Shown here one piece after another: positions 7,478 through 25,248 of a DNA stretch of 64,000 bases (within the stretch, counting starts at the first letter, position 1; every line of letters starts with the position of its first letter). The DNA is from Vicugna vicugna (Eukaryota): positions 186,001 through 250,000 of the forward strand of contig MU057487.1 in assembly GCA_013265495.1 (NCBI GenBank), read 5' to 3'. Position numbers and translations under genes: made by a program. The notes under the pieces are model-generated. The model saw nothing but the letters and a program-made list of their open reading frames with translations. It was not told the DNA's origin and did not search any database.

Positions 7478-7574
7478 TCATTCAAGGTCTTCAGTTTCTT
7501 TGGTAAATAGGTCAGCCAGATCCGCCACGGTCAAGACAGAGGCCTCTGAATGCTTCGCTGATGAGTTCGTGTGA
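7478..7574 (-). CDS. SHPRH: SHPRH terminal exon 30, coding part: (S)HTNSSAKHSEASVLTVADLADLFTKETEDLE*
   Basis: cccgcag|TCACACG ... GAA TGA (7480-7478); matches the SHPRH C-terminus as I recall it. Confidence 0.93.
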
Positions 7575-8853
7575 CTGCGGGATTTTCCAAGTGAGCAGAA
7601 TCAGAAAGAAACCCCAAGGAATGAATTACTATATTTGTCTTTATATACTGTTCTTGTCTTATAATAATATAAGACATAATAATATAATAAGAACATTATG
7701 TTCTTATAGTAATATAAGAACATATTTGTTCCTAAGTTTTTGTAATTGAGCTGTAAGAACCTCCCAGAAGAAAGTAGGCAATGGGATCACTATTACAACG
7801 TGTTAAAATCAGTGAAGACTTCTGCACGTCGTTTTCAAGCTTTGCTATAAAATGTTTCTCTCTGCACAAAGAATAAAACAAAGAAACAAAACCCCTGCCA
7901 ACTACTATTAAGGCCTTCACCTTACAATTTACCTTCTTACTATCCAAAATTAGTTTCAAGAAAAATTTAACTCTTTTAACTACCATTTTATTGAGGCAGC
8001 TTAAATACAATCACTGAATTCTGTTACGTATGGAAACACCACTAATAAAAAGACTTTATGTTTGAGGCAAAAGACTCTAGTGGTAGCCTCTTTCTTTCCA
8101 CCAGTGAAAGAGAATTTCTGATTTCTAACGGCTTCTTTGTTATGCAAAGTACCTTTGTAGAAACAATCCCATCTAAGAAAATCATCTCTTCTGAGTATAT
8201 CTTCCATTCATACCTATCTCACAAGGATTCAGTAAGGCATTCGTTTGTTTCAAAATGACTTTAAAGAAAATAAATTATAGGATAAATATTAGGAAGGTTT
8301 ATGATTCCAAACTTAAATTCTTAAAATTAAGGCTGTTCCACTTCTGAAATTAACATCACAATTACCAGCCTGGTTTTAATCCAGGCCTTCCTACCTTCGT
8401 GTGACTAACAAGTGTCATGAATAAATTTAGCAGCACCGTAAGTTTCATCTTACAGATACCAGACTAAAGCTTTCAGGTTGGGCATGAAGATAGATTTCAT
8501 TTAAAAAGTAAGCCCGTGTGGCAAAGGAATGTAAGATAGCGTTTTCTCCCCCAAAATACACATGGGTGATTTAAAGTATACTAGCTCTGAAACGAAGTTT
8601 CTTTAATAGTAGGATACTTTATTTTTATACATTACAATCCCTATTAATAAATTAGGTCAAAAATAGAATGTCCTGAGCATTAACTGGAACATCTGGAATA
8701 GGTAGAATGTCGTACCTTGCTTTTAAAAAGTATTTGCACTTACATCTTTTGGTTGACTAAGTGGTCATCTAAGTGAAGAAGTCCCACATGCTGACACAAC
8801 ATTTATGTAACAGGAAAGGTTCCCTCATCGACTTGAAGGGAATTGCTACCTAC

Positions 8854-8934
8854 CTCCTCTCAGCAGTCTTCAGCATTGCTTGCATTCTTTCTTCTATTGT
8901 CGCTTTAATTAAGAATCTGTGTACAATAGTGGGT
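8854..8934 (-). CDS. SHPRH: SHPRH exon 29: (K)PTIVHRFLIKATIEERMQAMLKTAER(S)
   Basis: cttctag|ACCCAC ... GAGGAG|gtaggt; 81 nt. Confidence 0.95.
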
Positions 8935-9119
8935 CTAGAAGGTACGTAAAATTGTAAGTTTAAAAACCTCTTAAAACAAATTAGAACAGACAAACTTCAT
9001 ACATTATGTGCTGTATTGTCAGTCAGTTGGTATCTTTTGGGGCAGGTACTAACCCAGTTGCTGGTGGTGGGAGGGCTGGCCAACAGTCAATAAAACCAAC
9101 TATTTATAATCTCAATGAA

Positions 9120-10390
9120 CTAATATCTATTGAGGGGAGATACACAATAAACACACAGAAAATAAGATATTTTCAGGTATAGACAATACAATGAAAAGAC
9201 TGACATATGAGATGAAACATGACTGACTGATGGGAATGAAGCCGTTAAGCAAGAGAGGAGGGAGAGGAGCATCTGAACAGAAGAAGCAGTAAATAACACC
9301 AGGTCCTGGGGAAGAGAATGTGCTTGGCAGAAGCTTAAAATGTTTTGAGGGGCAGAAAGAGGACTAGGGTGGCAGAAACATCCTGTAAATGAGGGGGAAA
9401 GAGGCCAGATCATGCAGGGCCTTGTCGGACATGGTGACAATTTGGATTCTTGCCATCAGTGTATTTTATGCGTGATGTGAACTATGCTCGATTATACTTC
9501 AGAAGTCCTTTTGGCAGCTGTGTTGGGGATAGACTGTTAGGCAGAAAGTAGAGGCAGAGAAGCCAGGGAAAGTTCTGTAGTAGTCCAGGTAAGAGGGTGG
9601 ATTGTACTTTGAATATATCAGTGGTGACAGTCAGTAGTCAGCAGATTTGGAATATTTTCGGAGGTGGAGCTGGCAAGACTTAAATGATGGTTTGGAAGTG
9701 AGGTATGAAGAGGGAAAAATGGAAGAGTCCTAGGTTTCTGGTCTGAGAAATGGATAATAGTGCCACACTGTAAGATGGGGAAGGCTTGGGGTAGGTGGGA
9801 GTGCAGTAGGAATAGTTGTTTTTCATCCATGTTAATCTTGAGTTTGCTATTAGATAGGCATCCAAGGGAAGGTGTGGAATCTGCTGACACACGTGCAGAG
9901 ACAGAAGTGGGTGGAAGAATCTGTGACAGGGGCTAAAGGGGCACGTCTGGTTTGGGGCTGCACATTTGAGTCATCCACATATAAACGCTACTTCAAGCTC
10001 TGGGACTGGATGAACTCACCTAGGGAGTGCAGAGAGAGGAAAAAGAACCCTGAAGGACCATGGGCAAGAAGTAGGTCATTAATAACATTATGAGGCTCAT
10101 TTCAGTGGCTTGGTGAGGACAAAACCCAAAGGGAAAGGCAGAGAGAGAATGGGAGGTAAGGAAGTAGAAGTGGAGGCAAAATGTAGGGGAGTGATTTTTT
10201 TAAAAAGATAGATAACATGAAGACATGCGATAACATTTATGTGGTAATGTACTGCCAAAGGAACGTGCTTGAGCATATGGGAAGGGACAGGACCCAGGGC
10301 AAGTAGAATGGCTAGTTTTTGAACGGAAAAGGAGACTTCTTCCCCTGTGATGGAAGGGATATACTGTGGCTTCCCGCCTGTTACTATAGA
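9120..10390 (-). mobile_element. L2 LINE fragment
   Basis: Purine-rich antisense-L2 motifs (ggccagatcatgcagggcctt, tagtccaggtaagag, gagtttgctattagataggcatccaag). Confidence 0.7.
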
Positions 10391-10539
10391 TGAAATATCC
10401 CTTCTCCTCCCTAAAACCAATCTGTATGCATGACTATCCGATCGTCACCTACTGGAGGGCCCTGCCCCAGCACTCTCCCCCATCTCTTGCTCTACTAGTT
10501 TTTGTCTCTAATGAATCATACTCTTGGGAGTTCTCTCAT

Positions 10540-12360
10540 ATGGAAGGGGGAAAAACAAAACCTCTCTTGTTCTTTCTTGTTTCCTTTTCTCTGCTTTTTG
10601 CAGCAAAACTCCTAGAAACACTAGTCCTACCAGCCAGAGAGGCAGCAGCACACTGTGGTTATTAAAAGGGCTGTGAAGGAGGAACGGCTGTAGAAACCTG
10701 CCACCACTTTCACTCGCTATGTGACCTTGGACAAGTTACTTAACAAAAAGGAAACTGTTCGTTAACAACAAATAAATAAAATCCTATTCTCTCTTACACT
10801 CAAATCAGGTCACTGCCTCCACCATTCCACCAAAACCGGCTTTGATCTGCGTGCTGCTAAGTCTAATGATTGACTCTCAAACCTTACCTTACTGGACATT
10901 TTGACAGTACATGACTCAGGTGAGCATATCTTCCTCCTTAAGTTACATTCTTTACTTGGCTCCCAGGATAACTCTCTCCTCTAGTTTTCTTCCTGACTCC
11001 CTGTTCGATCGATCATTATCGGTTGCCTTTGCTAGTTTCTCCTCTTTTCCCGCAGCCTTCAACTTTGGTGTGCTCAGGATTTCAATCTCTGGTCCTCCCC
11101 TCTACCTCCACTCACTCCATTGGAATCTCATTCAGTTTTATGACTTAAAAATACCATTATATGCTGGTGACTTTCAAATGCATTTCTCTCTTGAACTCTG
11201 GACTTACATATCCATTTAGTGAACTGAAATCTCTGGATGTCTAATCACATCTCAAACTTGTATCTAAAGTAAACTTCTATCCTTCTGTCCTACCTGGTAG
11301 TATTCCCCAGTTCAACTGGAAGCTTTTCACCCTTCTAGTTGTCCAGGCCAAAAAGCACGGTGCCGACCTTGACTCTCACATCCCACATCCAATCTGTCAC
11401 AAATACTATTGGTTCTACCTTCAAAATATGCCAGAGCCCGGTCACTTCTCACCATTTCCACCGCTGCTAACACGTCTGTCACCTTCGGCTCCCACCAGGG
11501 TTACTGCAACAGCCTCCTAACCAGTCCTCCTGCTTCCACCCTCACTTGCTCGTCTCCCCCCAAGGCTGGGACACAGCACTCAGGATGGGTCTTTCAACAC
11601 TTACAAGTTAGATCGTGTCACTCCTTTGCTCGAAGACTTCCAGTGGCCCCCTCTCTTGTATGTAGTGAAAGCCAGGTCTCCATGGTGGCTCCTGGGTCCT
11701 ATACAACACCCCCTGCTCCCGCCCACCCCCCAGCTCTCTGACTCCACCTCCTACTGATGTCTTCCTTGCTCTCTCTTCTGCAGCAACTCTGGCTCCTTGC
11801 TCTTCATCACACATGCCAGGCGTACTCCTGATCTAGGGAGGGTCCTTGATGTCTACTTGAGCATTTTCCCCTAAGATATCTGCACTTTTTCTCTCTTTTC
11901 TTTATCTCATTTCTCTGTTCAGCTTCTCCATAAGAACTTCCACGCCTTCCTGCCCAGCCACTCGCACTCTTGATCCTTCTTATCCTGCTCCACGTTTCCA
12001 GCTCCTGTCATAGCATGTATCTTACTTATTATGTTTATCTCCTGTGTTTGTGCACAGGCAACTCCTCTTTGGCTGCGTGAGCACCTTTTCTAGCCCAACT
12101 TTGAAATAATTATTCCTTCAAGATTCAACCTAACAAAGCCTTTCCCGACTCTCTAGGGCACAAGAGATCACTCCCTTCTTTTGTTATCACTGTACTTGTA
12201 TTATATTTTTGCACAGTCTACTATAATATATTAAATCATCAGTTTTCTGTACCACAGTCATCTCCCTGGGGAAATGGACTGTCATATACAATTTGAATCT
12301 TCAGTATCTAGCATAATGCCTATCATATGGTAGGCATTCAATCAATATTTATTTAATGAG
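10540..12360 (+). mobile_element. L2 LINE fragments, with a MIR piece at about 10630-10745
   Basis: Pyrimidine-rich L2 motifs (catctcaaact, ttactgcaacagcctcctaac) and L2 3' end (ggtaggcattcaatcaatatt); MIR gctatgtgaccttggacaagttacttaac. Confidence 0.7.
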
Positions 12361-12963
12361 TGCTTAATATGGATGCATTGAAAAAAAAACCATTCATCGC
12401 ATATAACATCCAGTAAGTAATATATCTAAGAGACCTTATAAAGGATAACTGTCCATTCTGATATTTGAGTCAAAGTAGTACATATTACATAATATTTACT
12501 ATTAGGTTATTTTGGGCCTTAAATTAAACTAATTGTCTCTCAGAGTGGATCTGGAAGGCTGTTTTTTCCAAAGGGAAAGAATTTAAAAAGGAGTTATTTG
12601 CTTTCAGCCATGCATGAGATATGCCTTCTTTTAATAAAGGTTCAACCAGTCAAAAGTGAATTCTTCTCAAAGTTATGACAGATCCCTTCAACTTAGTAGT
12701 TGTACTACATATTTTAGAAAACTGTTTTGATGAAGTGATCAGGGTAGTTTTTGAAGGAGGAAAGACAAAAATCTGGGAGAATTTGGGGGTCTGCTGCTTG
12801 GAGGAGGGAGGGTTGGAAATCTCAAAATGTCTTCTGGTCATATAGTTGAAAATTTAATAAGGGTGCAACTAAAAATGAATAGGTTATGATGAACATAAAT
12901 GACGAGTTTAAATGTATCCTAGAAACTTGACCAAATGTTACACATGATAATTTTCATTCTTAC

Positions 12964-13142
12964 TTTGTCTGTCCAATCCGGTGCACCCTTCCTATGGCCT
13001 GAAGCTCATGGGCAGGGTTCAATATGGGCTCCACCAAGAGAACATGAGTTGCTTCGATGATAGTTAATCCATTAGAACCTGTGTGCAGGGGCAGCAGCAA
13101 AATATTGATTTGGGGATCATATTTAAATGCTGAAAGGTTCTC
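12964..13142 (-). CDS. SHPRH: SHPRH exon 28: [34 protein letters not shown]...[12 protein letters not shown] (motifs V, VI)
   Basis: tttttag|GAGAAC ... ACAAA|gtaaga; 179 nt; [11 protein letters not shown]. Confidence 0.96.
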
Positions 13143-13906
13143 CTAAAAAAGAAAGGTACATTTAAATTTTAGCTAGATAGTTAAAAATAAGAGCAGTATA
13201 TTTTAGCTCATGTTAAAATACCTAATGGTATCCAGGTCATTATGAAACGTAGTAATTAAGATAATGAAATGTAAAATTACCAATTTTAGAAAGTATAAAT
13301 TTGTTGCTTGACTTAATGAAAAAAGTGTCACACAATCTCTCTTGTTCTTTATAATATATAGTGGAATCACAAGATACATGCATTTGATGTATGCAAATTA
13401 AACTATATGAGCTTAGAGGAAGAGGAGAAAGAATGTGTTAGAGTGAGTATGAGATAAGAGACATGAAGCTGCTAAGTTTTCCCTTGGTCGTTTTTTTGGT
13501 GTTTGTCTCTAAGCTGTGACCTGTCATTGTGCCAAGTGTGAGGTAAGCACAATTTGACCATATGCAGTTTTGCCTAAAGCAGTGTCTTTAGAATTTAATC
13601 CCAGGTGCATGAGGCTCCTGTCCATTCAAAAGGTATATCTTAGGCCATCTTTTCCTATACTAAAGAAAAGGACCTTAAGTCAGAAGATCTTTAAATATGG
13701 TTTGCTGTGAGTACAGCTGAGTAGGTGAAAAATAAATGCAGTTTCTTTATTTTGCCTTTAAATGTTAATTTTATAATTAATCAAGAATTCAAACCCTGTT
13801 TATGTGGTTTATATGACATGACGATAAATGCAATAAAGCTAATTAAGAGCAATTTCAATTTGCAACTGAATCCACTCAAAAAAACATGAATGAAATCTTG
13901 ACGTAC

Positions 13907-13993
13907 CTGAAATGTCTTAACACGACTGATCTGTGCAAATTCCATGTTGTTGTCAGTGAGAGCTTTTGAAATAATATCTAATACATCTTGCCA
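13907..13993 (-). CDS. SHPRH: SHPRH exon 27: WQDVLDIISKALTDNNMEFAQISRVKTFQ
   Basis: ttcttag|TGGCAA ... TTTCAG|gtacgt; 87 nt. Confidence 0.95.
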
Positions 13994-14686
13994 CTAAGAA
14001 CATACAAAAAATTAGAAAACAAACATTTACACACAGCTTTCATATAAAACAGATTTGAAAAGGGACTAAACCAAAATAACCTTTATACCTCAGAATTAAG
14101 TAAACAAAAACAAACTCTTTAAGTAAAATACCATTAATATTATCTTGTTCTAGCTTGAAAGATTTTTTTAAATCAAATGCTGGTTAAAGACATGGTAAAA
14201 AAGAAAAATAAGAATCTTTAAGAACTGAATTAAGATAAACATAAATAATAGAAAATAAATTATGGAGTGCTTAAAGGATGTGGTATTACTTATCTTTGAA
14301 AAATGAAAACTAGAAGTTTTATTCAATTATCTTTTATTCAATAGATTATTTTAATTTTCTTTTTCTTTACCAAGTTCATCTATGAAATGACTTTTAAGAT
14401 TACAGATTTCAATTTAAAAATATTAATAAGAAAATCCCTAAGTAAAGTTAATAAAAAAACATGAAATGTAGCTATAGGAATTACCTTGTGAAGCATCATC
14501 AAATTTCTCTAAAAATATTTCTGTCCTATGGACATACATTTTTCTGTGTTACGATTTTTTTTCTGTCAGTAATTCTAATTCTCAACGATATTATGGCAAA
14601 CACTAACAATTAGTTCTCAAATATAAACTGATTAGAAACAGAAAGTCAGCCTGAGTTAACACTGAGGATGAAAATGTTGACTGTAC

Positions 14687-14779
14687 CGTTGAGAAAACAA
14701 GCGCTTTAGCCCCGGGATCTCTAAGCTGGATTCTCATCAGAGTTCTGACCACAGCTTCTACTTTTGTAGAATGGCTACC
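14687..14779 (-). CDS. SHPRH: SHPRH exon 26: GSHSTKVEAVVRTLMRIQLRDPGAKALVFST (start of HELICc)
   Basis: ttcacag|GGTAGC ... TCAACG|gtacag; 93 nt; STK and LVFS motifs. Confidence 0.95.
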
Positions 14780-15414
14780 CTGTGAACACAAAGATAACAC
14801 ATTATTATCAAACAAAATCTAGTTAACAATGGACTGGAAAACAACATAAAACACTTTTATCAAAACTATATGATAGGTGCATATTTATCCTTTTTCATAT
14901 TGTATTTGCCAAAAATTTTCTTTTGCCTCAAATTGTAGAAGTTATAGATTTACACCCTGAGAGAATCAAATTTAAAAGCTCACCAGAAAGTACTATAGTG
15001 CTATGACCTGAGGATAAGATTTTTTAATTAAGTGGCTAGGTTTTGTACTTATAAAATTTTGTTACTTTAGAAAACCAGAATTTGTATTAAAAAAACACTC
15101 ACTTCAGATATTATGGCACTGAAAATATTCAGAACACAGTGAATCAAAACGCCAATGTAAGCACACAGTAAAGGGTCTAATCCACAAAGAATCCTTTCTT
15201 ACAATGGCATTATAAAGGATCAACGATGGAGGTACAAATGACGTCCACTTAGACTGAAGCAGATTTATACAAACTGAGGTAAACACTTAAAGAATGCTTT
15301 TTGCATTTTCCATAATCATTTCCATCATAAGAACATGAAAATGAGAAAAAAATGAAGAAATAAAGCAAGTGTTTTTGTAGCCTTCACTGAGAACATTTCC
15401 CTCCTGGAAAGCTC

Positions 15415-15650
15415 TGAGAGATGGTATGACATAGAAATTAAGGGGATGGATTTTGAGTGAGATTAATCTAAATTCTGCCAGTTCTGTGTCTCCTTAGTTA
15501 TACAGTCTAACTTTTCTAAGCCTTAGTTTCCTCATCTGTCAAGTAGGGGTGACAATTATATCTACTTCCAAAGGTTGTTGTGATGGTTAAATGAGAAAAC
15601 GCATACAAAACATTTAGCCCAATATCAGGCAAACAGTAGCTACTCAGAAA
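15415..15650 (+). mobile_element. MIR SINE
   Basis: ccttagtttcctcatctgtcaagtagggg...ggttgttgtgatggttaaatgag. Confidence 0.8.
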
Positions 15651-18600
15651 CTTACTGTCTTTCCGAGACATTAAATACGAGCACTACAATGACACAGGTT
15701 ATCCCACAAGGGAGGCAGATCTAACTAAAAAGAAGTGACAATATTCCCACATTACTCTTCTCCTCAAATCACCACGTCCCCCTCAAATCACCACCTCCCT
15801 TCACTATATTTTTACACGAAAAGGTACTCAAAGGTAAAAACATAAACAAAGAAGAAAGCTACACTAATTTTAAGTTAACAACATAGAATTATGGGAGAAG
15901 TTTGAAAATTCTCATACTAAAATCCTGAGTCTACACTTATTTCTCTGGACATTCAGACTTCCAATTATATTTGAAACGTTAGAAAATATAAGGGATCTAT
16001 TTCAGTCTAAAAATGATCTTAAATAAGAGAAAACAGGAAATTAGCATAAAATGGTCATTTAGGAGTTTAGACGGAAACCCATGCTTCTTGTAAGGACTCA
16101 TTTTCAAAGATACTTTCAAGTAAAATGCCAGGAAAACTATGAACCCGTCCATCAATTAAGCTGCTTCTCACAAAAATCCAAAAGAAAACAGAATAACCTT
16201 TTATAAGCAACATCCCAAGCTGGAGTGCTAACTCTGAGGGAAAAGACCAGAACATCCCCTTTTACCACAGTTTGGCCAGTTCAGTGGTAGCCCTCAATGA
16301 TCTCTTCCAAATGCTACAATTCTGAACCATTTGGTCCCAGGCCGGTTACTTCTTACTACGAAAGAAAAATAATAAGGAAATCTAGAAATCCTAAGCTCTG
16401 CTTGGCAGAAAGCTACATGGGGAGTGAGACGATCTTAATACTCTTTTCTTCCAGATGGACATGAAGTGCTACTGAGAATGAGAACAATGAAGAAAGAAGA
16501 GGGTGGCCCATGTATATCTGTGGCTCTTGGTTTGAGTATGCAGGCTATGCACAATTTTTGAAAACAAAGGCAATAAATTCATAATTTTTTATGTCAGACC
16601 AATGTGTTAAGGCAATTTCTTATTTTGGACTACTTGAAGAGATTTAAATGATTATAAATTATCACTAGAAACGTTGCTTCAAGTTACAAGATATAAAGTT
16701 GAAAATCCACTACCTGAGTCTGTTTTAATAATAATTCATAATCTGTTGTTAAATGAAAAGAAAATGTCCTAGACAATGAAGGATTACTGATCTAAAAAGT
16801 AACACAGAAAGGAGTTCTTGTACTTGATTTATACAAATAAAAGAAAAATAATGCCTATGACTAGAAAGTTATTGCTGCTTTGTATTTTTCTTTGATGATC
16901 TCTACGATAAAAGTGAAAACTGGGAACTCTGAAATGGGGCATGGCAATCCATGACTCTGAACCAAGAGCTTGTTCTTCACCAATCTAGTTCTTCTTCCTT
17001 TGGCCCTTTATTTTCTCTGTTTACCTAATCTGTCCACATTCCTCTCCAATTCCTTTGTCTTTATAGTATCTATGGATTCTCATGGTCATGCTCAGCTCCA
17101 AGGGTAGAATTAAGGGCTAAAGTGGCTGCTGTGTCCTGAAGAACATCAGTAAAAAGTCAACACAATGGAGGTGATGAATGTACTCAGTCTTGTTTTTCAT
17201 CAAACATTAGAAAGAATATTCATGTTTATAGACTACTTTATGTTAACAGGTAGACTATATCTTTAGTGATGTTATAGATACTATATACTTATATACTATC
17301 TTTAATATCTTTATAATGTTTTAATGTATTAGTACATTTCTATACAATATATATTCTATACATATGAAATACACACACGCCAACATACATGGAACATGTC
17401 AAATGATGTCTTACATTAATGGGCTTGCCAGACACTTATGACTCTAAACTGAAGGCACAATGAAGTCATTTTCAGAAGTGTAAAAACTTTGAAATTCGCC
17501 ATTCACATACTCATCATGTTAAAATCTTTTGAAACAGTATAGCACAGTGAAGAAAGAACTGTAGAATGAGGATCACATGGATAATGGTGCCAGATAAGGA
17601 TGACACAGAAATGAAGGAAGCCAGATAAAAAAATGAGAACTTCTATTATATTGGGATGTGTGAAGATTCTTCCTAGAAAAGCAAAGTTTAAATGATGGAG
17701 GATTAGGATTACATTCCTTTCTGCATTTCAATCACTCTTTTTTGGTTCTATAATAAAAAGTATTTTTATTATAATATTGTACACACCATTTACTGATTTC
17801 TTCTAGATAGGGAAGTCACATCTATAATCACATAACAAAATGTGAATGTATAAACATTATAATATAAAGATGATACTATAACAAAAATTAGAATGTAGAA
17901 GGGTAAAGAAAGAATGAAGGAGGAACAGATGCACTAATTTCCTCATATTTTAAAGTAAGGAGTCAGTAGATACTGTCTGAAGCTAGTATTTCAAGGAGCA
18001 AAATTTATGTGTATTACTGAAAGTCATGGAGGTGACCTCTATAACTAAAAATAGAAATTGTTCACAGTGGCAAGGTAAACGAGGAAGAATGAAGGAGAAC
18101 ATTACTTCCCACTGTGTGCCATTTGTTATATCCTGAATTTATTTATTTTTCTCTTTTGTGTGAATTACTTCTACTAAAAAATATTGTATTTTTTGTTAAC
18201 CCTTATTTCTTACAGATAGACAAGGGTTTTGGGGAAAGGGTGGAAGGCTTGGAATTCTGGGACCCTTTAAACTTATTACATCTGTGATACAACTGGGACT
18301 GTGTCTGTCACAAGTGAGCTGGTCTTCTGAACCAGGTCATTACCCTAATGCTGCATGCTGCTGTACCTGCAAGACCTCTTACTGCTCTAGGCGCAAATGG
18401 ATGCCTACTGTGCGCTACCTGCCGCAGGTAATGAGTTTCAGCTTTGTCAGAAATGGGACAATCACATCTGAGGCAGAGCACAGGTAGTATTTTAATCTTT
18501 CAGTTATTACCTGGATTGATTTTTTTTTACAATCTTTTAAACATACTACAAGAATCAAAGAGATTAGAGATTTCTGAAGATTCATCTAACTGAAGAACAT

Positions 18601-20044
18601 CACTTTAAAAAAAGAAGAATTTATACAACTTCAGCTCCCTTCTCCTCTCCCCCTCCAAAAAAAAAAAAAAAGAGAGAGAGAACTATGGTCTGTAACCAGT
18701 TATATGAGCAACTGGGATTATAATTTGGTGACAGGTCAGGTTTTTCTTTAGATTTCCTTGCTGGTTTGTAACTTAACAAGTAACTTCAATGCTTCCTATT
18801 GTTTAGTATAGAGGAAGTCATCTCCTGCTGGTATTTTCTGACTTTCATTACTTTTATTCTGGACTTTTCTTTTTGAAGGAAGCTAAGTCTTTCAATGTGC
18901 ATGTGCTGTCCATAGTAGTTTTAGCTAAGTAAGATCACTTAACATTGTTTTATTTCTGTCTGCACCTGTTCACCATGCTAAAAACCCATGTTGGCAGTGA
19001 CAGATACAATTTAGTGCAGCTAACACAGCTTGTACGATTGATCCGACAAAGTAGGAATACTTTTCAAGCATATGCCTGGGGCAATAGTTGGATTCTTCAC
19101 ATGTTACTTGAATAAAGTTTAATGGAAACTCCACCCAGGCAACCTATGTGGGAAATTTCACAAGTGTACCAGGCCACAGAAATATCATCCTGTTCTTTAA
19201 ATACTCTGAATAGTTATTTCAAAGAGGTAAGTTAGTAACTGCAAAAAAGTTAAACATTTTATTTGGATCCAAACATTTTATTAGGGATGTTATATATAAA
19301 TACTAATCAGTTGTTTATCTGTCCATCCATCCATCTACTGATACCTGTTACATGCTAGGCATCGTTCTAGATACCAGGGATACAGTAGTGACTGAAACAA
19401 CCCCACCTCATGAACAATGTCTTTTCCACAATTACTGGAGTTTACACTCCACAAATAAAATTTTTCATTAAAATAATTTATAGTTTATATCTTGGAAGTC
19501 TTTATTGTACGTTCAATTTACTGCAAGCTATTGCTAACTTCAACATGAGGCTCACTAACAGTTCGAGAGCTAATTTGGCTAGTGAATAGAAATCGTTTTT
19601 TGCAATTGTATTTGCTCATGACATTTTCTAACAAAAATACTTAACTGCATTCTAAATTTACCAGTTAATAGTCATGTACAAGTATTATCTTATATAAAAA
19701 TATTTAGATAAGCATATTTAAATATAACTACATACATAAAAATTACCTATTTTATGCCAACTTGAAACTCAGTCAGAATTTTGCAGTTTTATTACACCCA
19801 GATGTTTATTTTTAATTATATTTAGAAATTACAAGAGAGACTTCACATGTCACCTTTGAATCAACTGAAGAAAAACTCAAAAAAAAAAAAAAAAAGCAAA
19901 GCAAAGAAAAGAAAGGAAACAACAGGATTCTACACACAGAATTTGACACGTGGTATTACCAGGCTTCTCTGGGAGTCTGAATGTAGAAATACCATATTTT
20001 TCTTTTTTTTCCTCTACAAAAAGGTTGTATAAAACATCAGTATT

Positions 20045-20190
20045 ATCAACAGGTTTGCTTGTTGTAAATCCAGATTCGTGGGCCAAATCCAAGATCTAAT
20101 GAGTCAAATTTATAGGAATGGAGACTGAAAAAATTCTTTATTTCAACAAGAAGACCAGTTGATTATCAGACACTCAAAAGTTTGAGAAGA
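20045..20190. mobile_element. MER5A-like DNA transposon fragment
   Basis: gcttgttgtaaatccagattcgtgggcc...aaagtttgagaa. Confidence 0.55.
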
Positions 20191-22109
20191 TGAAGCACTG
20201 TGTGCATGTGTGTGGGATAAGGAGGGAGGGTGCTGTTCTGCTGTGGCTACTATATCCATGTAGTGAATTTTCTCTTAGATAGAAACTTCTTGTGACATAA
20301 GCACTTTGTCCATTACAGGGGCAGGGTTTCTAATGACAAAACTGCTTTGTATGAAATCTAGCCAAATTTAGGACACAGGGAACATGCCACGTGGGGCTAT
20401 GTTCTGCCAGGAGGCCTGCTCCACCAGCTAAAATGCCTGGCAGTTGTCAGAACTTGCAGGGGGAATTTTGTTTACTCTGTGAAATGCCCAGTAGGTTCCA
20501 AGGGTCATTTAGGAATACTGTCACACTGCAGTCAAGATAGATACAGTTTTTAACCTAAATGCATCCACTAATGAACATATTTTATTCATTTTACTTCTGT
20601 GGTCAGTCACAATGTAGGATTCCTGACATTGTGAAATACCAGCAGAAAAAAAAAGTCTTATTTATTATTTAATCCTATTTTTATGTTCTCCAAATATCTT
20701 TTATCAGAGATCAGCTATATGATTAAGCACCATGTATGATATATTGTTTGCTGTGTTGGAGAGACTTGACACGGATGCTTAGAGTAAAACACACACTTTA
20801 AATAAAAACATTAATGAAATAAAAAATTAATTCACAGGAGTGTTTAGTAATGATCAGGGATTTGATAATCAACAATAAAAAAAGAACCCTGAAATTTTGG
20901 AATAGTATGAACTAATATTTATAAAATTTCAAAATAATGTCTTCATTTTTCATATGGAGCCATCTTTTTATTCCTCAACTCTAAGACAGGTGATGTGACC
21001 ATTTAGTGGGATAGTTTCAGATGGTCAGAAAGTGCAGTGAAAGTCTGAGAAAATAATAAGCAGATGTTTCAAGGAGAAGGTGGCAGAAATGTGACAGTTA
21101 GAAAGTAGGACAGGTAGCAGAAGGCAGAGTGGCACAGAGAAATGGTGACAGAAACAAAAGTAAATGCAAGCAAGAAGCAATGTGAGAACGTGGAAAAGTG
21201 ATAAAACTTGCTTGCATAGTAAGTACAATATTCACTTATGTATTTAATGAAAGGGAAATATAAGTATATATGCATCCATGACAAAAGAGAAATTAACTTT
21301 AGTAAATTCTGTATTCTTACAGTTTTTTTACATGATCCTTCAATTAATTCATGTGTTCATCAATACTTATGAAAGACAGGAAGAGTCAGAGCATAATAAA
21401 CAGTATCTGTACACTGATATCCCTGTCCTAACAGGACAGCAAACATAACTGTCCCGATCTCTCCCCTGGGTGTCTAGGAAAGCTGCCATAAAATGAACAG
21501 GTGTTTGGGTTTGATGGGCTCAGTGACTCAGTTTCATAGAGGCTGTGCTGTTTACTGGGAGCTAGAGCAATCACTTCCTAAACCTTGCTGCATGCAGCCT
21601 GACACAGCAGTTCTTTCTTATGCTCGTTCCTTGTACTGTGACGAACGCTTCTGGCTGAGGGTCAGCAGCCCTTCTTAGGCCAAGAATGCCATCTGTGGCC
21701 CTTGGGATGCCCGAGGCCAGAAGAAAAGATGGAAGGGAAAAAAGAAAGGGCTGATAAGAAAGACTATTTTTATGGGAAGGAAAGGGAGAAAGAACTACAG
21801 AAGTAGGAAGAAAGGGGAAGAAGGGGACTGAGAAGGAAAGCAGTTCTTTGTGTGGTGAGTAGGTTAAAGGATAACCAACTCTGGATATTATACACCATCC
21901 ACCTGGACCACCTATTCAACATGCAGGCCTCGCTGCTTCAACTTCTAGCATCTCTTCTCCTCCCCCTCACTGGGGTCACCCACTTCTACAGTGACACGGG
22001 GAGTACCTAATACCTGTCCTCTCTGAAAATGACTAATGAAGATCTGTTCTCTGGTAAGGACATCTACCCTTATAGCTTGGTTGCTCCAAAGCCCAATATA
22101 ACCTGTTAG

Positions 22110-24015
22110 TTATTTGATTTCAGTGAGATCTCTACTTTCTCTCTGTACATCAACACTCTCTGTCTTTTTAAGAAACTGTATTACTGATTATACCTTCTCT
22201 CTCCTATTTCTTCAAACCATTCTTTACTGGAGATTAAACATGCTCAAGAATCTTTTATCTTGAATAGAATAAAACCAAAAAGCACAGAAGCCTTTCTGCA
22301 CTTCATCTCTCCCTCTGGTTACAACTCTCACTTTTCTACTTCAAAGCTAAATTTACAGAGTAGTTGGGCATTTCTCTCACCACTTACTCACTTCCTGTTC
22401 CCTCCTAATTCCCTCCCAATCTGCCTTTTCCCTCTACATTTCTGTTGAAAGGGCTCCTTCTGAAATCATCAATGGCCTTCACTAGCCAAATCAGTCCGTC
22501 TTGTAGCTGAGCCACCTTCAGCATCACTGCCTCCTGACTGACGCCGAGTCGGCCTGTGGCCTCTGTTGACAGGATACTCTCTGGGACTGCCTATGCCTCT
22601 CGTTGCTCGTTCTTGGTCTCTCTTTTCAGCTTCTTTCCCTTTATTCCTTTTAAAAAGCTATGGAGTGCTGTAGGACCCGATCTGAAGCTAAATTCTGTGT
22701 TTCTTTCCTTAGGTAATCTCATGTACTCTCATGGCTTCAAAGATCACTATGGCAATGACTCTGAATTTTGTATCTTTAGCTCCACATATTAACACTTTGC
22801 TGGACAGTTCTACTTGGATGTCTAAGGCACTTCAAGTCTAAATGTATCCTTCTTCCAAATAACCTTATATCAGTAACTGTACCTTTATCCGCCTGATTTT
22901 TCACATCAGAAACCAGGGGTCACCTACAAAATCTCCTTCATCAACCCCTCCAACATTCGACCCTCTTCCTCTTACTCATCAACTTTATAAACATCTCTTG
23001 AACATATTCCCTTCTTTCCTTCTCCACTACCACCAATCTAATAGAAGTCATCATCACTGTGGTAGCCTCCTAAACTGGTCTCTCCAGAACTTTTTCTACT
23101 CTAGTATTTTCTATTCCTGCTAATCTCATTTCCATACTGTAGCAAGAGGAATCTCAAAAATCCAAGATTGATCATGATACTTCTCTGCTTGTAACATGTT
23201 AATAGCTTTTTCTTTCTTTCTCTTTCTTCCTTCCTGCCTTCTTTCTTTCCTTTTTTATAAAAGGAAAAACATCTCATGTTTTCATGGATTGGAAGACTTC
23301 ATATCTATATTTTATAACTGAAGTACAGTTGATTTATTAATGCCAAACTTGTATCTTTCTTTATATGAAAAGAAAATTCTCAACTCTTCAGCTGGCCCTT
23401 CAACATCTGGCCCTTCTTCAGTTTCCAGACTCACTTCATTCCATTCTCCTTTGTGCTTTCTACACTGCCCTGCTCAGTTCCATTTGAGTTCCCTCTTGTT
23501 TCAGTACCTTTCCATGTACTGGGTTTTTTGCTTGTTTTGTTTTTTTCTGTCTTGCAGCCTCCTCCTGATGAGATCCCTTCTACCGTCTCTCCAGGTTGGC
23601 TGATCCAGGCATTCTTTACACACCTGCTTAATTGCCCTTACCTCAGAGAAGCCAGGTTTGATTTCCTTTTGTGGTGCTTACCACAATTATAATACATTAA
23701 TTATTTGTTTAATACCTGTGCTTTCTGCCTCAACTAAAACTCTGTCCCCTCACTGCCAAACTGTAAAACCCATAAGGGTTTTACAGCAATCACACCTATT
23801 TTATTAATGAGTGTATGATGACAAACTCTGTCCCCTCACTGCCAAACTGTAAAACCCATGAGGGTTTTACACAATCACAAACTGTAAAATCCATGAGGGT
23901 TTTACAGCAATCACACCTATTTTATTAATGAGTGTATGATGCATCTGTTAGGCCCAGAACACTGCAGAGTACACAGTATATGTCCCATAAAATATACAGA
24001 AAGAATGAGTGAATG
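22110..24015 (+). mobile_element. Degraded L2 fragments, with CT-rich tract at about 23205-23255
   Basis: ctctcatggcttcaa..atcactat, cttggatgtct, tagcctcctaaactggtctc, terminal gaatgagtgaatgaa. Confidence 0.6.
23737..23941. repeat. Complex local duplication (A-B-C-A-B-B-C) containing three copies of a palindrome
   Basis: Near-identical blocks read directly from the sequence; see findings. Confidence 0.9.
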
Positions 24016-25059
24016 AAAGCTCATTCCAACTTTGAGATTCTGTTTATCTCAACATACATGAGAGCACTGGTTGATATTTTCAGGTTTCACTCAAGGAACA
24101 GTGGGAATAAACAGCAGTTAGATATTCCTTAATTGAACTACAGTGTTCTCAGGAAGGCTCACTCCTGGCAGTTTCAACTTGTGCTGAATTCTACTCACAA
24201 AATACAACCCAAAAATAAGTGAGAAGAGAGCGTGAGGGACCCAGAAGGAGAAGGAATTAATGAAAAATATTCTACTACCGCTGCTGAGTAGCTCCATCAC
24301 TCTGCCAACTACTCCTTCTGGCCTACATTCCCTACTACATTCATATATTGAGTTGTCCTTTGTCTAAGGTTGGTTAGAAAAGAAAAGTTTAAATAAAACA
24401 AAGAACAAAAAGTCTAGTAAAGGCTTTTCATTAAATAAATACCCCTTAGGCAGAAAGTCCAATTACAGATCCTATCTGGATTTCAAATTATAGTCTTAAT
24501 TATAGTCTTATTAAAGTTCTCAATGAAGCAGGGGAAAAAATTAGGACAATAAAGCCAAGTTTTGGCTATACCCTGAAATATCAATCCATGCCGTCTAGAA
24601 GTGAGCTACCTCCTTCCAGTGATAGTCTTCACTGACTTCAGTAACCAATTAATTTTGTCCTTTACTTTGGTAGAGCACATCCTCTTCCCCAAATACCCAG
24701 GACTGAAAGAAGAATGAAGAAAAAGAAACCTCTAATTTAACCAGAGTTCTATCGATTTGTAGTGGACAGAAATACCATAAAAATAATAACGGACTGGAAT
24801 TCTAAGCTGTTCCTTTTTTTGCCATAGTGGGCATGACTATTGCTAACTATGTTTGAGAAAGCATTCTTGTGTTTCTCCCACAAGGAACGAGTAGATGGCA
24901 AAGCTGAGGCTTTCAGGCAGTGTATCTACAGAAAGACAACAGTGGTGATTCCTCGTTCACTGTGCCAGCCTTGTTCAGATTTTGATGCTGTCTCTGTCAG
25001 GTACTAATTCCTATTCCATTGGTCTGACTATGCTTCTACATGCTCTTAACCAACTTTAC

Positions 25060-25248
25060 CTTCACAGGGATGTCCTCTTCCTGGCTGGCTTTCTCTGAAG
25101 TGAAGACATATGAGATTTCTTTGTGAGATGTGGTCTGGCGGCAAATGGCACACTTAATTGAGCTCCTATGAGACCCCACGCTGTATTGTTCGATAATAAT
25201 TGAAATGCACTCATTACAGAAACAGTGCCCACAGGTCAGTACTGCCCA
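25060..25248 (-). CDS. SHPRH: SHPRH exon 25: WAVLTCGHCFCNEC...KCAICRQ...EEDIPVK (rest of C3HC4 RING)
   Basis: tttttag|TGGGCA ... GTGAAG|gtaaag; 189 nt; CGH..C..C...C..CR RING ligands. Confidence 0.96.

Follow-up and report, generated by a model that had tools for sequence, protein, structure and literature searches.

A silent valine codon shortens the predicted circ-SHPRH reading frame in Vicugna vicugna

The SHPRH exon chain was placed by tblastn across a 64-kb window of Vicugna vicugna DNA, the window being the whole stretch analysed (64,000 nucleotides; assembly GCA_013265495.1, contig MU057487.1, positions 186,001 to 250,000 of the forward strand); all positions below count from its first letter. 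SHPRH is an SNF2-family helicase and E3 ligase; four minus-strand exons in this window are its helicase-C exons, the counterparts of human exons 26-29, and their residues correspond to 1506-1651 of the 1683-aa primate SHPRH. A protein search matched 729 proteins at E ≤ 0.001; 120 of these were listed, and the named ones among them are SHPRH, often at 100% identity, and a profile search gave a Pfam Helicase_C match on exon 28 (E 1.5e-08). Exons 27 and 28 show 100% identity to several artiodactyl and rodent SHPRH orthologues, and the nearest SHPRH relatives of the Vicugna vicugna gene among the proteins listed are camel models. The locus is an ordinary SHPRH orthologue in a non-human placental mammal, the human locus being already known. 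The features are as follows.

25060..25248, minus strand: exon 25 equivalent, upstream linear exon, from tblastn
14780-25059: intron 25, ~10.3 kb, from the exon 25 position
14687..14779, minus strand: exon 26 equivalent, 93 nt, with the acceptor of the predicted circle, the tail frame, TGATGA and the ATG; aligns to sheep and primate SHPRH; splice sites ..TTCACAG/GG (acceptor) and ACG/GTACAG (donor); translation GSHSTKVEAVVRTLMRIQLRDPGAKALVFST
14758..14760, minus strand: tail-frame TAG, predicted to end the circle ORF after 139 codons
14734..14739, minus strand: TGATGA, two tail-frame TGA overlapping the ATG at 14737-14735; circle positions 41-46
13907..13993, minus strand: exon 27 equivalent, 87 nt, 100% identical to orthologues across 29 aa
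12964..13142, minus strand: exon 28 equivalent, 179 nt, core of the helicase C-terminal domain
8854..8934, minus strand: exon 29 equivalent, 81 nt, donor of the predicted circle, ..GAGAGGAG/GTAGGT
7580-8853: intron 29, ~1.27 kb, from the position of the last exon
7481..7579, minus strand: coding part of the last exon, ending ..SHTNSSAKHSEASVLTVADLADLFTKETEDLE, from tblastn

The initial annotation had described at this locus a circle conserved in size, and its geometry was reproduced on recomputation from the sequence: the exons sum to 440 nt (93 + 87 + 179 + 81), all four lie between AG and GT, and TGATGA and the ATG lie at 14739-14734 and 14737-14735. The DNA thereby holds what characterizes circ-SHPRH, namely the exon 26-29 equivalents, 440 nt and canonical splice sites where the circle would be joined. 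Selection on the helicase domain of linear SHPRH would keep the four exons, which code for part of the helicase C-terminal domain here as elsewhere; nothing differs in the linear reading, and the finding concerns only the shifted-frame reading after a hypothetical back-splice. Back-splicing of exon 29 to exon 26 would yield a 440-nt circle in which the reading frame is moved by one base (440 mod 3 = 2). The predicted junction, 8854 to 14779, reads ..GAGAGGAG/GGTAGCCA.., and an ORF started at the ATG would run through 132 residues of linear SHPRH before entering exon 26 in the shifted frame, which would add a short tail.

This tail frame translates as VAILQK-stop-KLWSEL-stop-stop. The predicted ORF consists of the 132 residues common with linear SHPRH followed by RVAILQK; it ends ...TAERRVAILQK at the TAG at 14760-14758, for a total of 139 aa, as had been claimed. 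With this TAG open, the next stop would come at codon 147, in the TGA of TGATGA, which corresponds to 146 aa. SHPRH-146aa is characterized by an ORF that, after one lap of the circle, stops at the TGA that overlaps its start ATG; here the TAG intervenes. The middle base of this TAG, the A at 14759, occupies the third position of a GTA valine codon in the linear frame GSHSTKVEAVV..., i.e. Val1512 in the 1683-aa numbering. Since this residue is encoded by GTA, the ORF would be 139 aa long.

What the initial annotation stated on the human circle agrees with excerpts of reviews, in which human circ-SHPRH comprises exons 26-29, measures 440 nt and encodes 146 aa, with TGATGA (UGAUGA) as the overlapping stop and start of the ORF. 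According to these excerpts the human product shares residues 1520-1651 with linear SHPRH, a span that contains the ubiquitination sites K1562 and K1572. In the 1683-aa primate SHPRH the start Met is residue 1520 and the Arg of TAER residue 1651, so that the published numbering fits. The predicted Vicugna vicugna ORF maps to the same human residues, with K1562 and K1572 kept as ORF K43 and K53. It thus resembles SHPRH-146aa in the 132 shared residues, and the locus resembles human circ-SHPRH (hsa_circ_0001649) with respect to the gene, the four exons, the 440 nt, the TGATGA with its ATG and the AG/G junction codon (Arg).

The predicted product differs from SHPRH-146aa in its 139 codons and in the residue after the Met, an Arg where human has Lys. 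The second tail residue differs as well: a published human junction siRNA reads ..GAGAGAAG/GGCAGCCAUUC, so that the human tail begins R-A-A-I and that of Vicugna vicugna R-V-A-I, because of a silent GGC/GGT difference in a glycine codon. The locus spans 5,926 bp of genomic DNA, as compared with 6,959 bp from the human coordinates quoted in the excerpts. Accounts of circPPP1R12A, circ-AKT3 and the UGAUGA virusoid, likewise in excerpt, describe circles of a length not divisible by three, whose ORF re-enters the start region in a shifted frame, with a stop overlapping the ATG. The Vicugna vicugna circle would share this arrangement; however, its overlapping stop would be left unreached, termination being predicted 20 nt upstream of the ATG. 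A literature search for circ-SHPRH in camel, mouse or chicken returned matches that only cite human work.

The tail would be set wholly by third-position bases of codons that are selected in the linear frame. Only three codons can close it, those of Val1512, Val1515 and Val1516, which gives possible ORF lengths of 139, 142, 143 or 146 codons. GTA accounts for 19 of the 89 valine codons of Vicugna vicugna SHPRH, and under the gene's own codon use, taking as given the AGA of the Arg after the third Val, the probability that all three sites are open is ~0.26. A shortened tail is therefore the expected state under neutrality. Exon sizes and the L-M-R/K stretch are conserved as protein features and GTA is common, so that exon sizes, L-M-R/K and codon together are no more than what orthology and the genetic code predict. 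Val1512 is a valine in 110 of the 111 SHPRH proteins with the exon-26 motif (120 listed), an amino-acid comparison that carries no information on third-position bases; in most lineages Val1512 could still be restricted to codons other than GTA. Val1516Ile occurs in a colobus monkey and in three rodents and alters the tail frame again.

We consider that GTA at Val1512 probably reflects neutral synonymous drift in a tail without selection of its own. Frames, gene identity and codon counts are read directly from the DNA, and the drift reading builds on one species, these codon statistics and a single residue of the human tail. Within this best explanation, the tail is probably unconstrained, and a circle would be made and translated. 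The tail had been proposed to be either unconstrained or lineage-variable: its variability is borne out by the human R-A-A-I and by lineages devoid of the start Met, while its lack of constraint is our inference. The further proposal that the locus tests whether the 146-aa product is functionally conserved went too far, as the loss is confined to the last seven residues, all frameshifted, and both K1562 and K1572 are retained.

Of the 111 vertebrate SHPRH proteins carrying the exon-26 motif (120 listed), only 66 have the start Met. Lys or Arg replaces it in horse, two emballonurid bats, bilby, koala, birds and reptiles.

A different view of the locus is that no circle is made in this species, or none translated, and that the 139-codon ORF is a paper construct on linear exons. 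This is possible, but we rather doubt it. A blastn comparison of intron 29 with intron 25 found inverted matches of 23 nt at most (best 14-23 nt, E at least 0.13) and thus no reverse-complementary match of at least 24 nt, so that intron pairing, the usual route to back-splicing, has no visible basis here. Pairing of flanking introns is, however, not a defining feature of circ-SHPRH, and proteins can drive back-splicing in its place. The junction-derived tail is also absent from the 247 proteins fetched, none of which reads RVAIL or RAAIL; the nine that depart from the usual ..TAER-SH.. all have alternative or truncated ends. An exon 28 query for a retro-copy of the circle finds only its own locus in the Vicugna vicugna genome. 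Absence from sets of predicted proteins is nevertheless weak evidence, and both the canonical splice sites at the two circle boundaries and exon sizes equal to those of the human circle argue for a circle. It is improbable that the human exon also reads GTA, in which case the human ORF would be ~139-140 aa, '146' would stem from an overlooked stop and the two species would not differ. Human SHPRH does have Val at this site, for which GTA is possible, and a table excerpted from one review gives residues 1520-1651 'besides 8-aa' of unique C-terminus, a sum of 140, whereas 146 aa needs 14 tail residues; the secondary literature, as far as these excerpts go, is thus inconsistent on the human tail length. 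Published primer and siRNA tables cover the first 11 bases of exon 26 and end before the Val1512 codon, and full-text searches with a window 13-mer, a 15-residue ORF stretch and four siRNA 12-mers yielded no usable human exon 26 sequence. Three other reviews, again in excerpt, place the human stop at the TGA of TGATG(A), which gives 146 aa and argues against a human GTA.

The 146-codon ORF might instead be selected in mammals, this lineage having suffered a real truncation that alters or weakens the circle protein. The near-invariance of Val1512 and the functional human 146-aa product described in the review excerpts would agree with such selection; but the linear helicase frame accounts for the conservation of the valine, the 132 shared residues with both lysines are intact, the start Met is dispensable in several mammals and the human tail already differs at its second residue. 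Taken with this evidence, a selected ORF appears decidedly unlikely. Very unlikely indeed is that the A at 14759 stems from misassembly or is polymorphic in a species that normally has GTG and 146 codons: GTA is common in this gene, and six sequencing runs, probably of DNA, contain 0.94 of the words sampled from the 5.9-kb locus; this share is not specific to the position, and the runs may include the assembly's own source.

The wider question is whether the UGAUGA overlap and the 14-residue human tail are themselves evolutionary accidents, the ORF flipping between 139, 142, 143 and 146 codons across placental mammals and the ATG being lost altogether in some lineages (horse, emballonurid bats) and absent from the outset in marsupials, birds and reptiles. 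We regard this as evenly balanced. If they are accidents, the protein encoded by circ-SHPRH would not as such be kept by selection, and any activity would rest on the 132 residues taken over from linear SHPRH. The selective maintenance of proteins encoded by circular RNAs is debated, and circ-SHPRH is among the most-cited examples. As the length of the ORF depends on three valine codons, they provide a simple, countable test, for which the neutral expectation under the codon use of this gene is about one open ORF in four. Vicugna vicugna contributes one lineage with a shorter predicted ORF yet with the 132 shared residues intact. A single silent base in a single species is a small datum and not a discovery, and its value lies within a tabulation of many species together with evidence of back-splicing.

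Scans of other collections gave little related material: the metagenome scan for related mammal DNA returned 13 loci of only 52-81% identity, which were unusable, and that of prokaryote genomes three unrelated loci. In a word search of sequencing runs, which we did not count as evidence, 20 runs hold part of the stretch; four of these, all from one study, are recorded as RNA and hold 0.30-0.36 of the sampled words.

Most of the SHPRH gene lies on the minus strand of the window, where tblastn with full-length orthologues placed its exons from approximately 63.7 kb down to 7.5 kb. The equivalents of human exons 26 to 29, each bounded by AG and GT, total 440 nt:

14779-14687, minus strand, exon 26 equivalent (93 nt)
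13993-13907, minus strand, exon 27 equivalent (87 nt)
13142-12964, minus strand, exon 28 equivalent (179 nt), Pfam Helicase_C
8934-8854, minus strand, exon 29 equivalent (81 nt)

Exon 28 matches Helicase_C with an E-value of 1.5e-08 and is single copy in the window's own assembly (2.03 Gb, 12,405 contigs searched). A protein search with this exon gave 729 matches at E ≤ 0.001, and among the best 120, which were listed, many named SHPRH proteins are 100% identical to it. Of the listed proteins exceeding 1200 aa, the best scores against the window came from three Camelus dromedarius models (92.2-92.9% across tblastn segments), which are nevertheless not identical to the window gene; the remaining ones reached at most 90.0% over such segments.

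When the four exons were joined head to tail, TGATGA occupied circle positions 41-46 (14739-14734). The open reading frame (ORF) starting at its ATG follows linear SHPRH for 132 residues (MRIQLRDPGAK to LKTAER), crosses the putative back-splice with the junction codon AG/G (Arg), and runs on as VAILQK, now reading exon 26 in the shifted frame, up to a TAG at 14760-14758, for a total of 139 residues. In the linear frame exon 26 reads GSHSTKVEAVVRTLMR..., and the TAG combines the final TA of a GTA Val codon with the G of the next codon, GAA. The tail frame translates as VAILQK, stop, KLWSEL and two stops; were the TAG open, the ORF would have 146 codons and close on the TGA of TGATGA. The initial annotation had claimed that the circle is conserved at 440 nt and that its ORF is cut to 139 aa by a codon silent in the linear mRNA. 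This observation is confirmed: the exon sizes and their sum, the TGATGA position, the 139-codon ORF and the TAG position are all correct, and the shifted-frame and linear translations agree with the 146 codons and the GTA origin of the stop, respectively.

The primary report of human circ-SHPRH is that of Zhang et al. (Oncogene, 2018). In review summaries, the human circle (hsa_circ_0001649) comprises exons 26-29, 440 nt, and its ORF begins with the ATG and terminates, once the frame has shifted, at the TGA contained in TGATG, yielding 146 aa; by the coordinates quoted in one review its locus spans 6,959 bp, compared with 5,926 bp in the window, whose locus is therefore distinct from the human one. 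As summarized in PMC8740365, the protein shares SHPRH residues 1520-1651, including K1562 and K1572. This agrees with a 1683-aa primate SHPRH (P0117), in which MKIQLRD begins at Met 1520, TAER ends with Arg 1651 and lysines occupy 1562 and 1572, so that the window ORF is the exact positional counterpart, with both lysines kept. The junction codon is also the same, as judged from published human primers and siRNAs (..GAGAGAAG/GG.. and ..GAGAGAAG/GGCAGCCAUUC). The human features given in the initial annotation (exons 26-29, 440 nt, TGATG(A) stop, 146 aa) thus match the review summaries, with one exception. A table in PMC8740365 describes the product as residues 1520-1651 'besides 8-aa at its C-termini', that is 132 + 8 = 140 residues, whereas 146 requires a 14-residue tail, and the secondary literature is therefore inconsistent on the human tail length. 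Taken literally, this table would mean that the human ORF also stops early, which we consider improbable, as three reviews, in their summaries, let it reach the TGA. The human SHPRH protein has Val at position 1512.

The tail is what the G-S-H-S-T-K-V-E-A-V-V-R-T-L-M segment encodes in the shifted frame. By the genetic code, none but the three valines of this segment can give rise to a stop, which limits the ORF to 139, 142, 143 or 146 codons:

Val1512, followed by Glu: GTA gives TAG; window codon GTA
Val1515, followed by Val: GTA gives TAG; window codon GTG
Val1516, followed by AGA Arg: GTA gives TAA and GTG gives TGA; window codon GTC

The terminal TGATGA is doubly secured by two in-frame TGAs. 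The 89 valine codons of the window SHPRH (1,389 matched residues) are GTG 33, GTT 21, GTA 19 and GTC 16, making GTA at any single valine approximately a one-in-five event. Under this usage the probability of all three sites being open is 0.26, and a shortened tail is thus expected if selection acts on the linear frame alone. The circle locus is an ordinary orthologue of the known SHPRH locus with a neutral-looking synonymous difference, and the main use of its ORF is as one entry in a tally of the three valine codons across many species.

Provided that the circle forms and is translated as described for human, its product would be a 139-residue protein made of SHPRH 1520-1651 plus RVAILQK. The activity of the human protein, as outlined in PMC8740365, is that of a decoy for the E3 ligase DTL, with ubiquitination sites K1562 and K1572 in the shared span. 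Since the window ORF contains this whole span, the loss of seven frameshifted residues would probably be of little consequence. The stop would lie 20 nt upstream of the ATG and would not overlap it, so any UGAUGA termination/re-initiation coupling would not apply to the predicted circle, which might, speculatively, lack it.

The proposal that the tail is lineage-variable is partly borne out by three differences at the sequence level, in tail residue 2, the start codon and Val1516, the human comparison being drawn from secondary literature. Exon 26 starts with GGC in human (siRNA) and GGT in the window, which is silent for Gly and changes tail residue 2 from Ala in human to Val in the window. 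Among the 111 of 120 listed SHPRH proteins with the exon-26 motif, the start Met (Met1520) is found in 66, including one frog (Discoglossus); of the others, 43 have Lys there (Przewalski's horse, bilby, koala, birds, turtles, crocodilians, lizards and two unnamed proteins) and two, both from emballonurid bats (Saccopteryx, Rhynchonycteris), have Arg. Judged from these proteins, the ATG is largely placental, replaced in some placentals and not vertebrate-wide. Among the listed proteins, Ile replaces Val1516 in those of a colobus monkey, three heteromyid/geomyid rodents and one lizard, which rewrites their tail frame; Val-Val (1515-1516) is kept in human, gibbon, orangutan, chimpanzee and bonobo. 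At position 1512, Val occurs in 110 of the 111, protein data being silent on the third base and hence on the frequency of the stop-making codon. Thirteen metagenome contigs (L001-L013) encode SHPRH-like helicase C-terminal regions (52-81% identity); they presumably represent DNA of non-mammalian eukaryotes and are useless for a mammalian comparison.

The introns around the circle exons are very unequal, with 10.3 kb for intron 25 (14780-25059) and 1.27 kb for intron 29 (7580-8853). No inverted match between them exceeds 23 nt (best E-value 0.13), which leaves the common intron-pairing route to back-splicing without visible support; protein-driven routes may apply. The 93-nt exon 26 (14687-14779), which bears the ATG of the circle ORF, has a weak donor in the window (ACG/GTACAG). 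Four annotated SHPRH models (P0008, P0012, P0032 and P0036; two Camelus dromedarius, one Camelus ferus and one black rhinoceros) skip it in frame, joining ..EDIPVK straight to WQDVLD.., which may reflect either a genuine isoform or an artefact of gene prediction.
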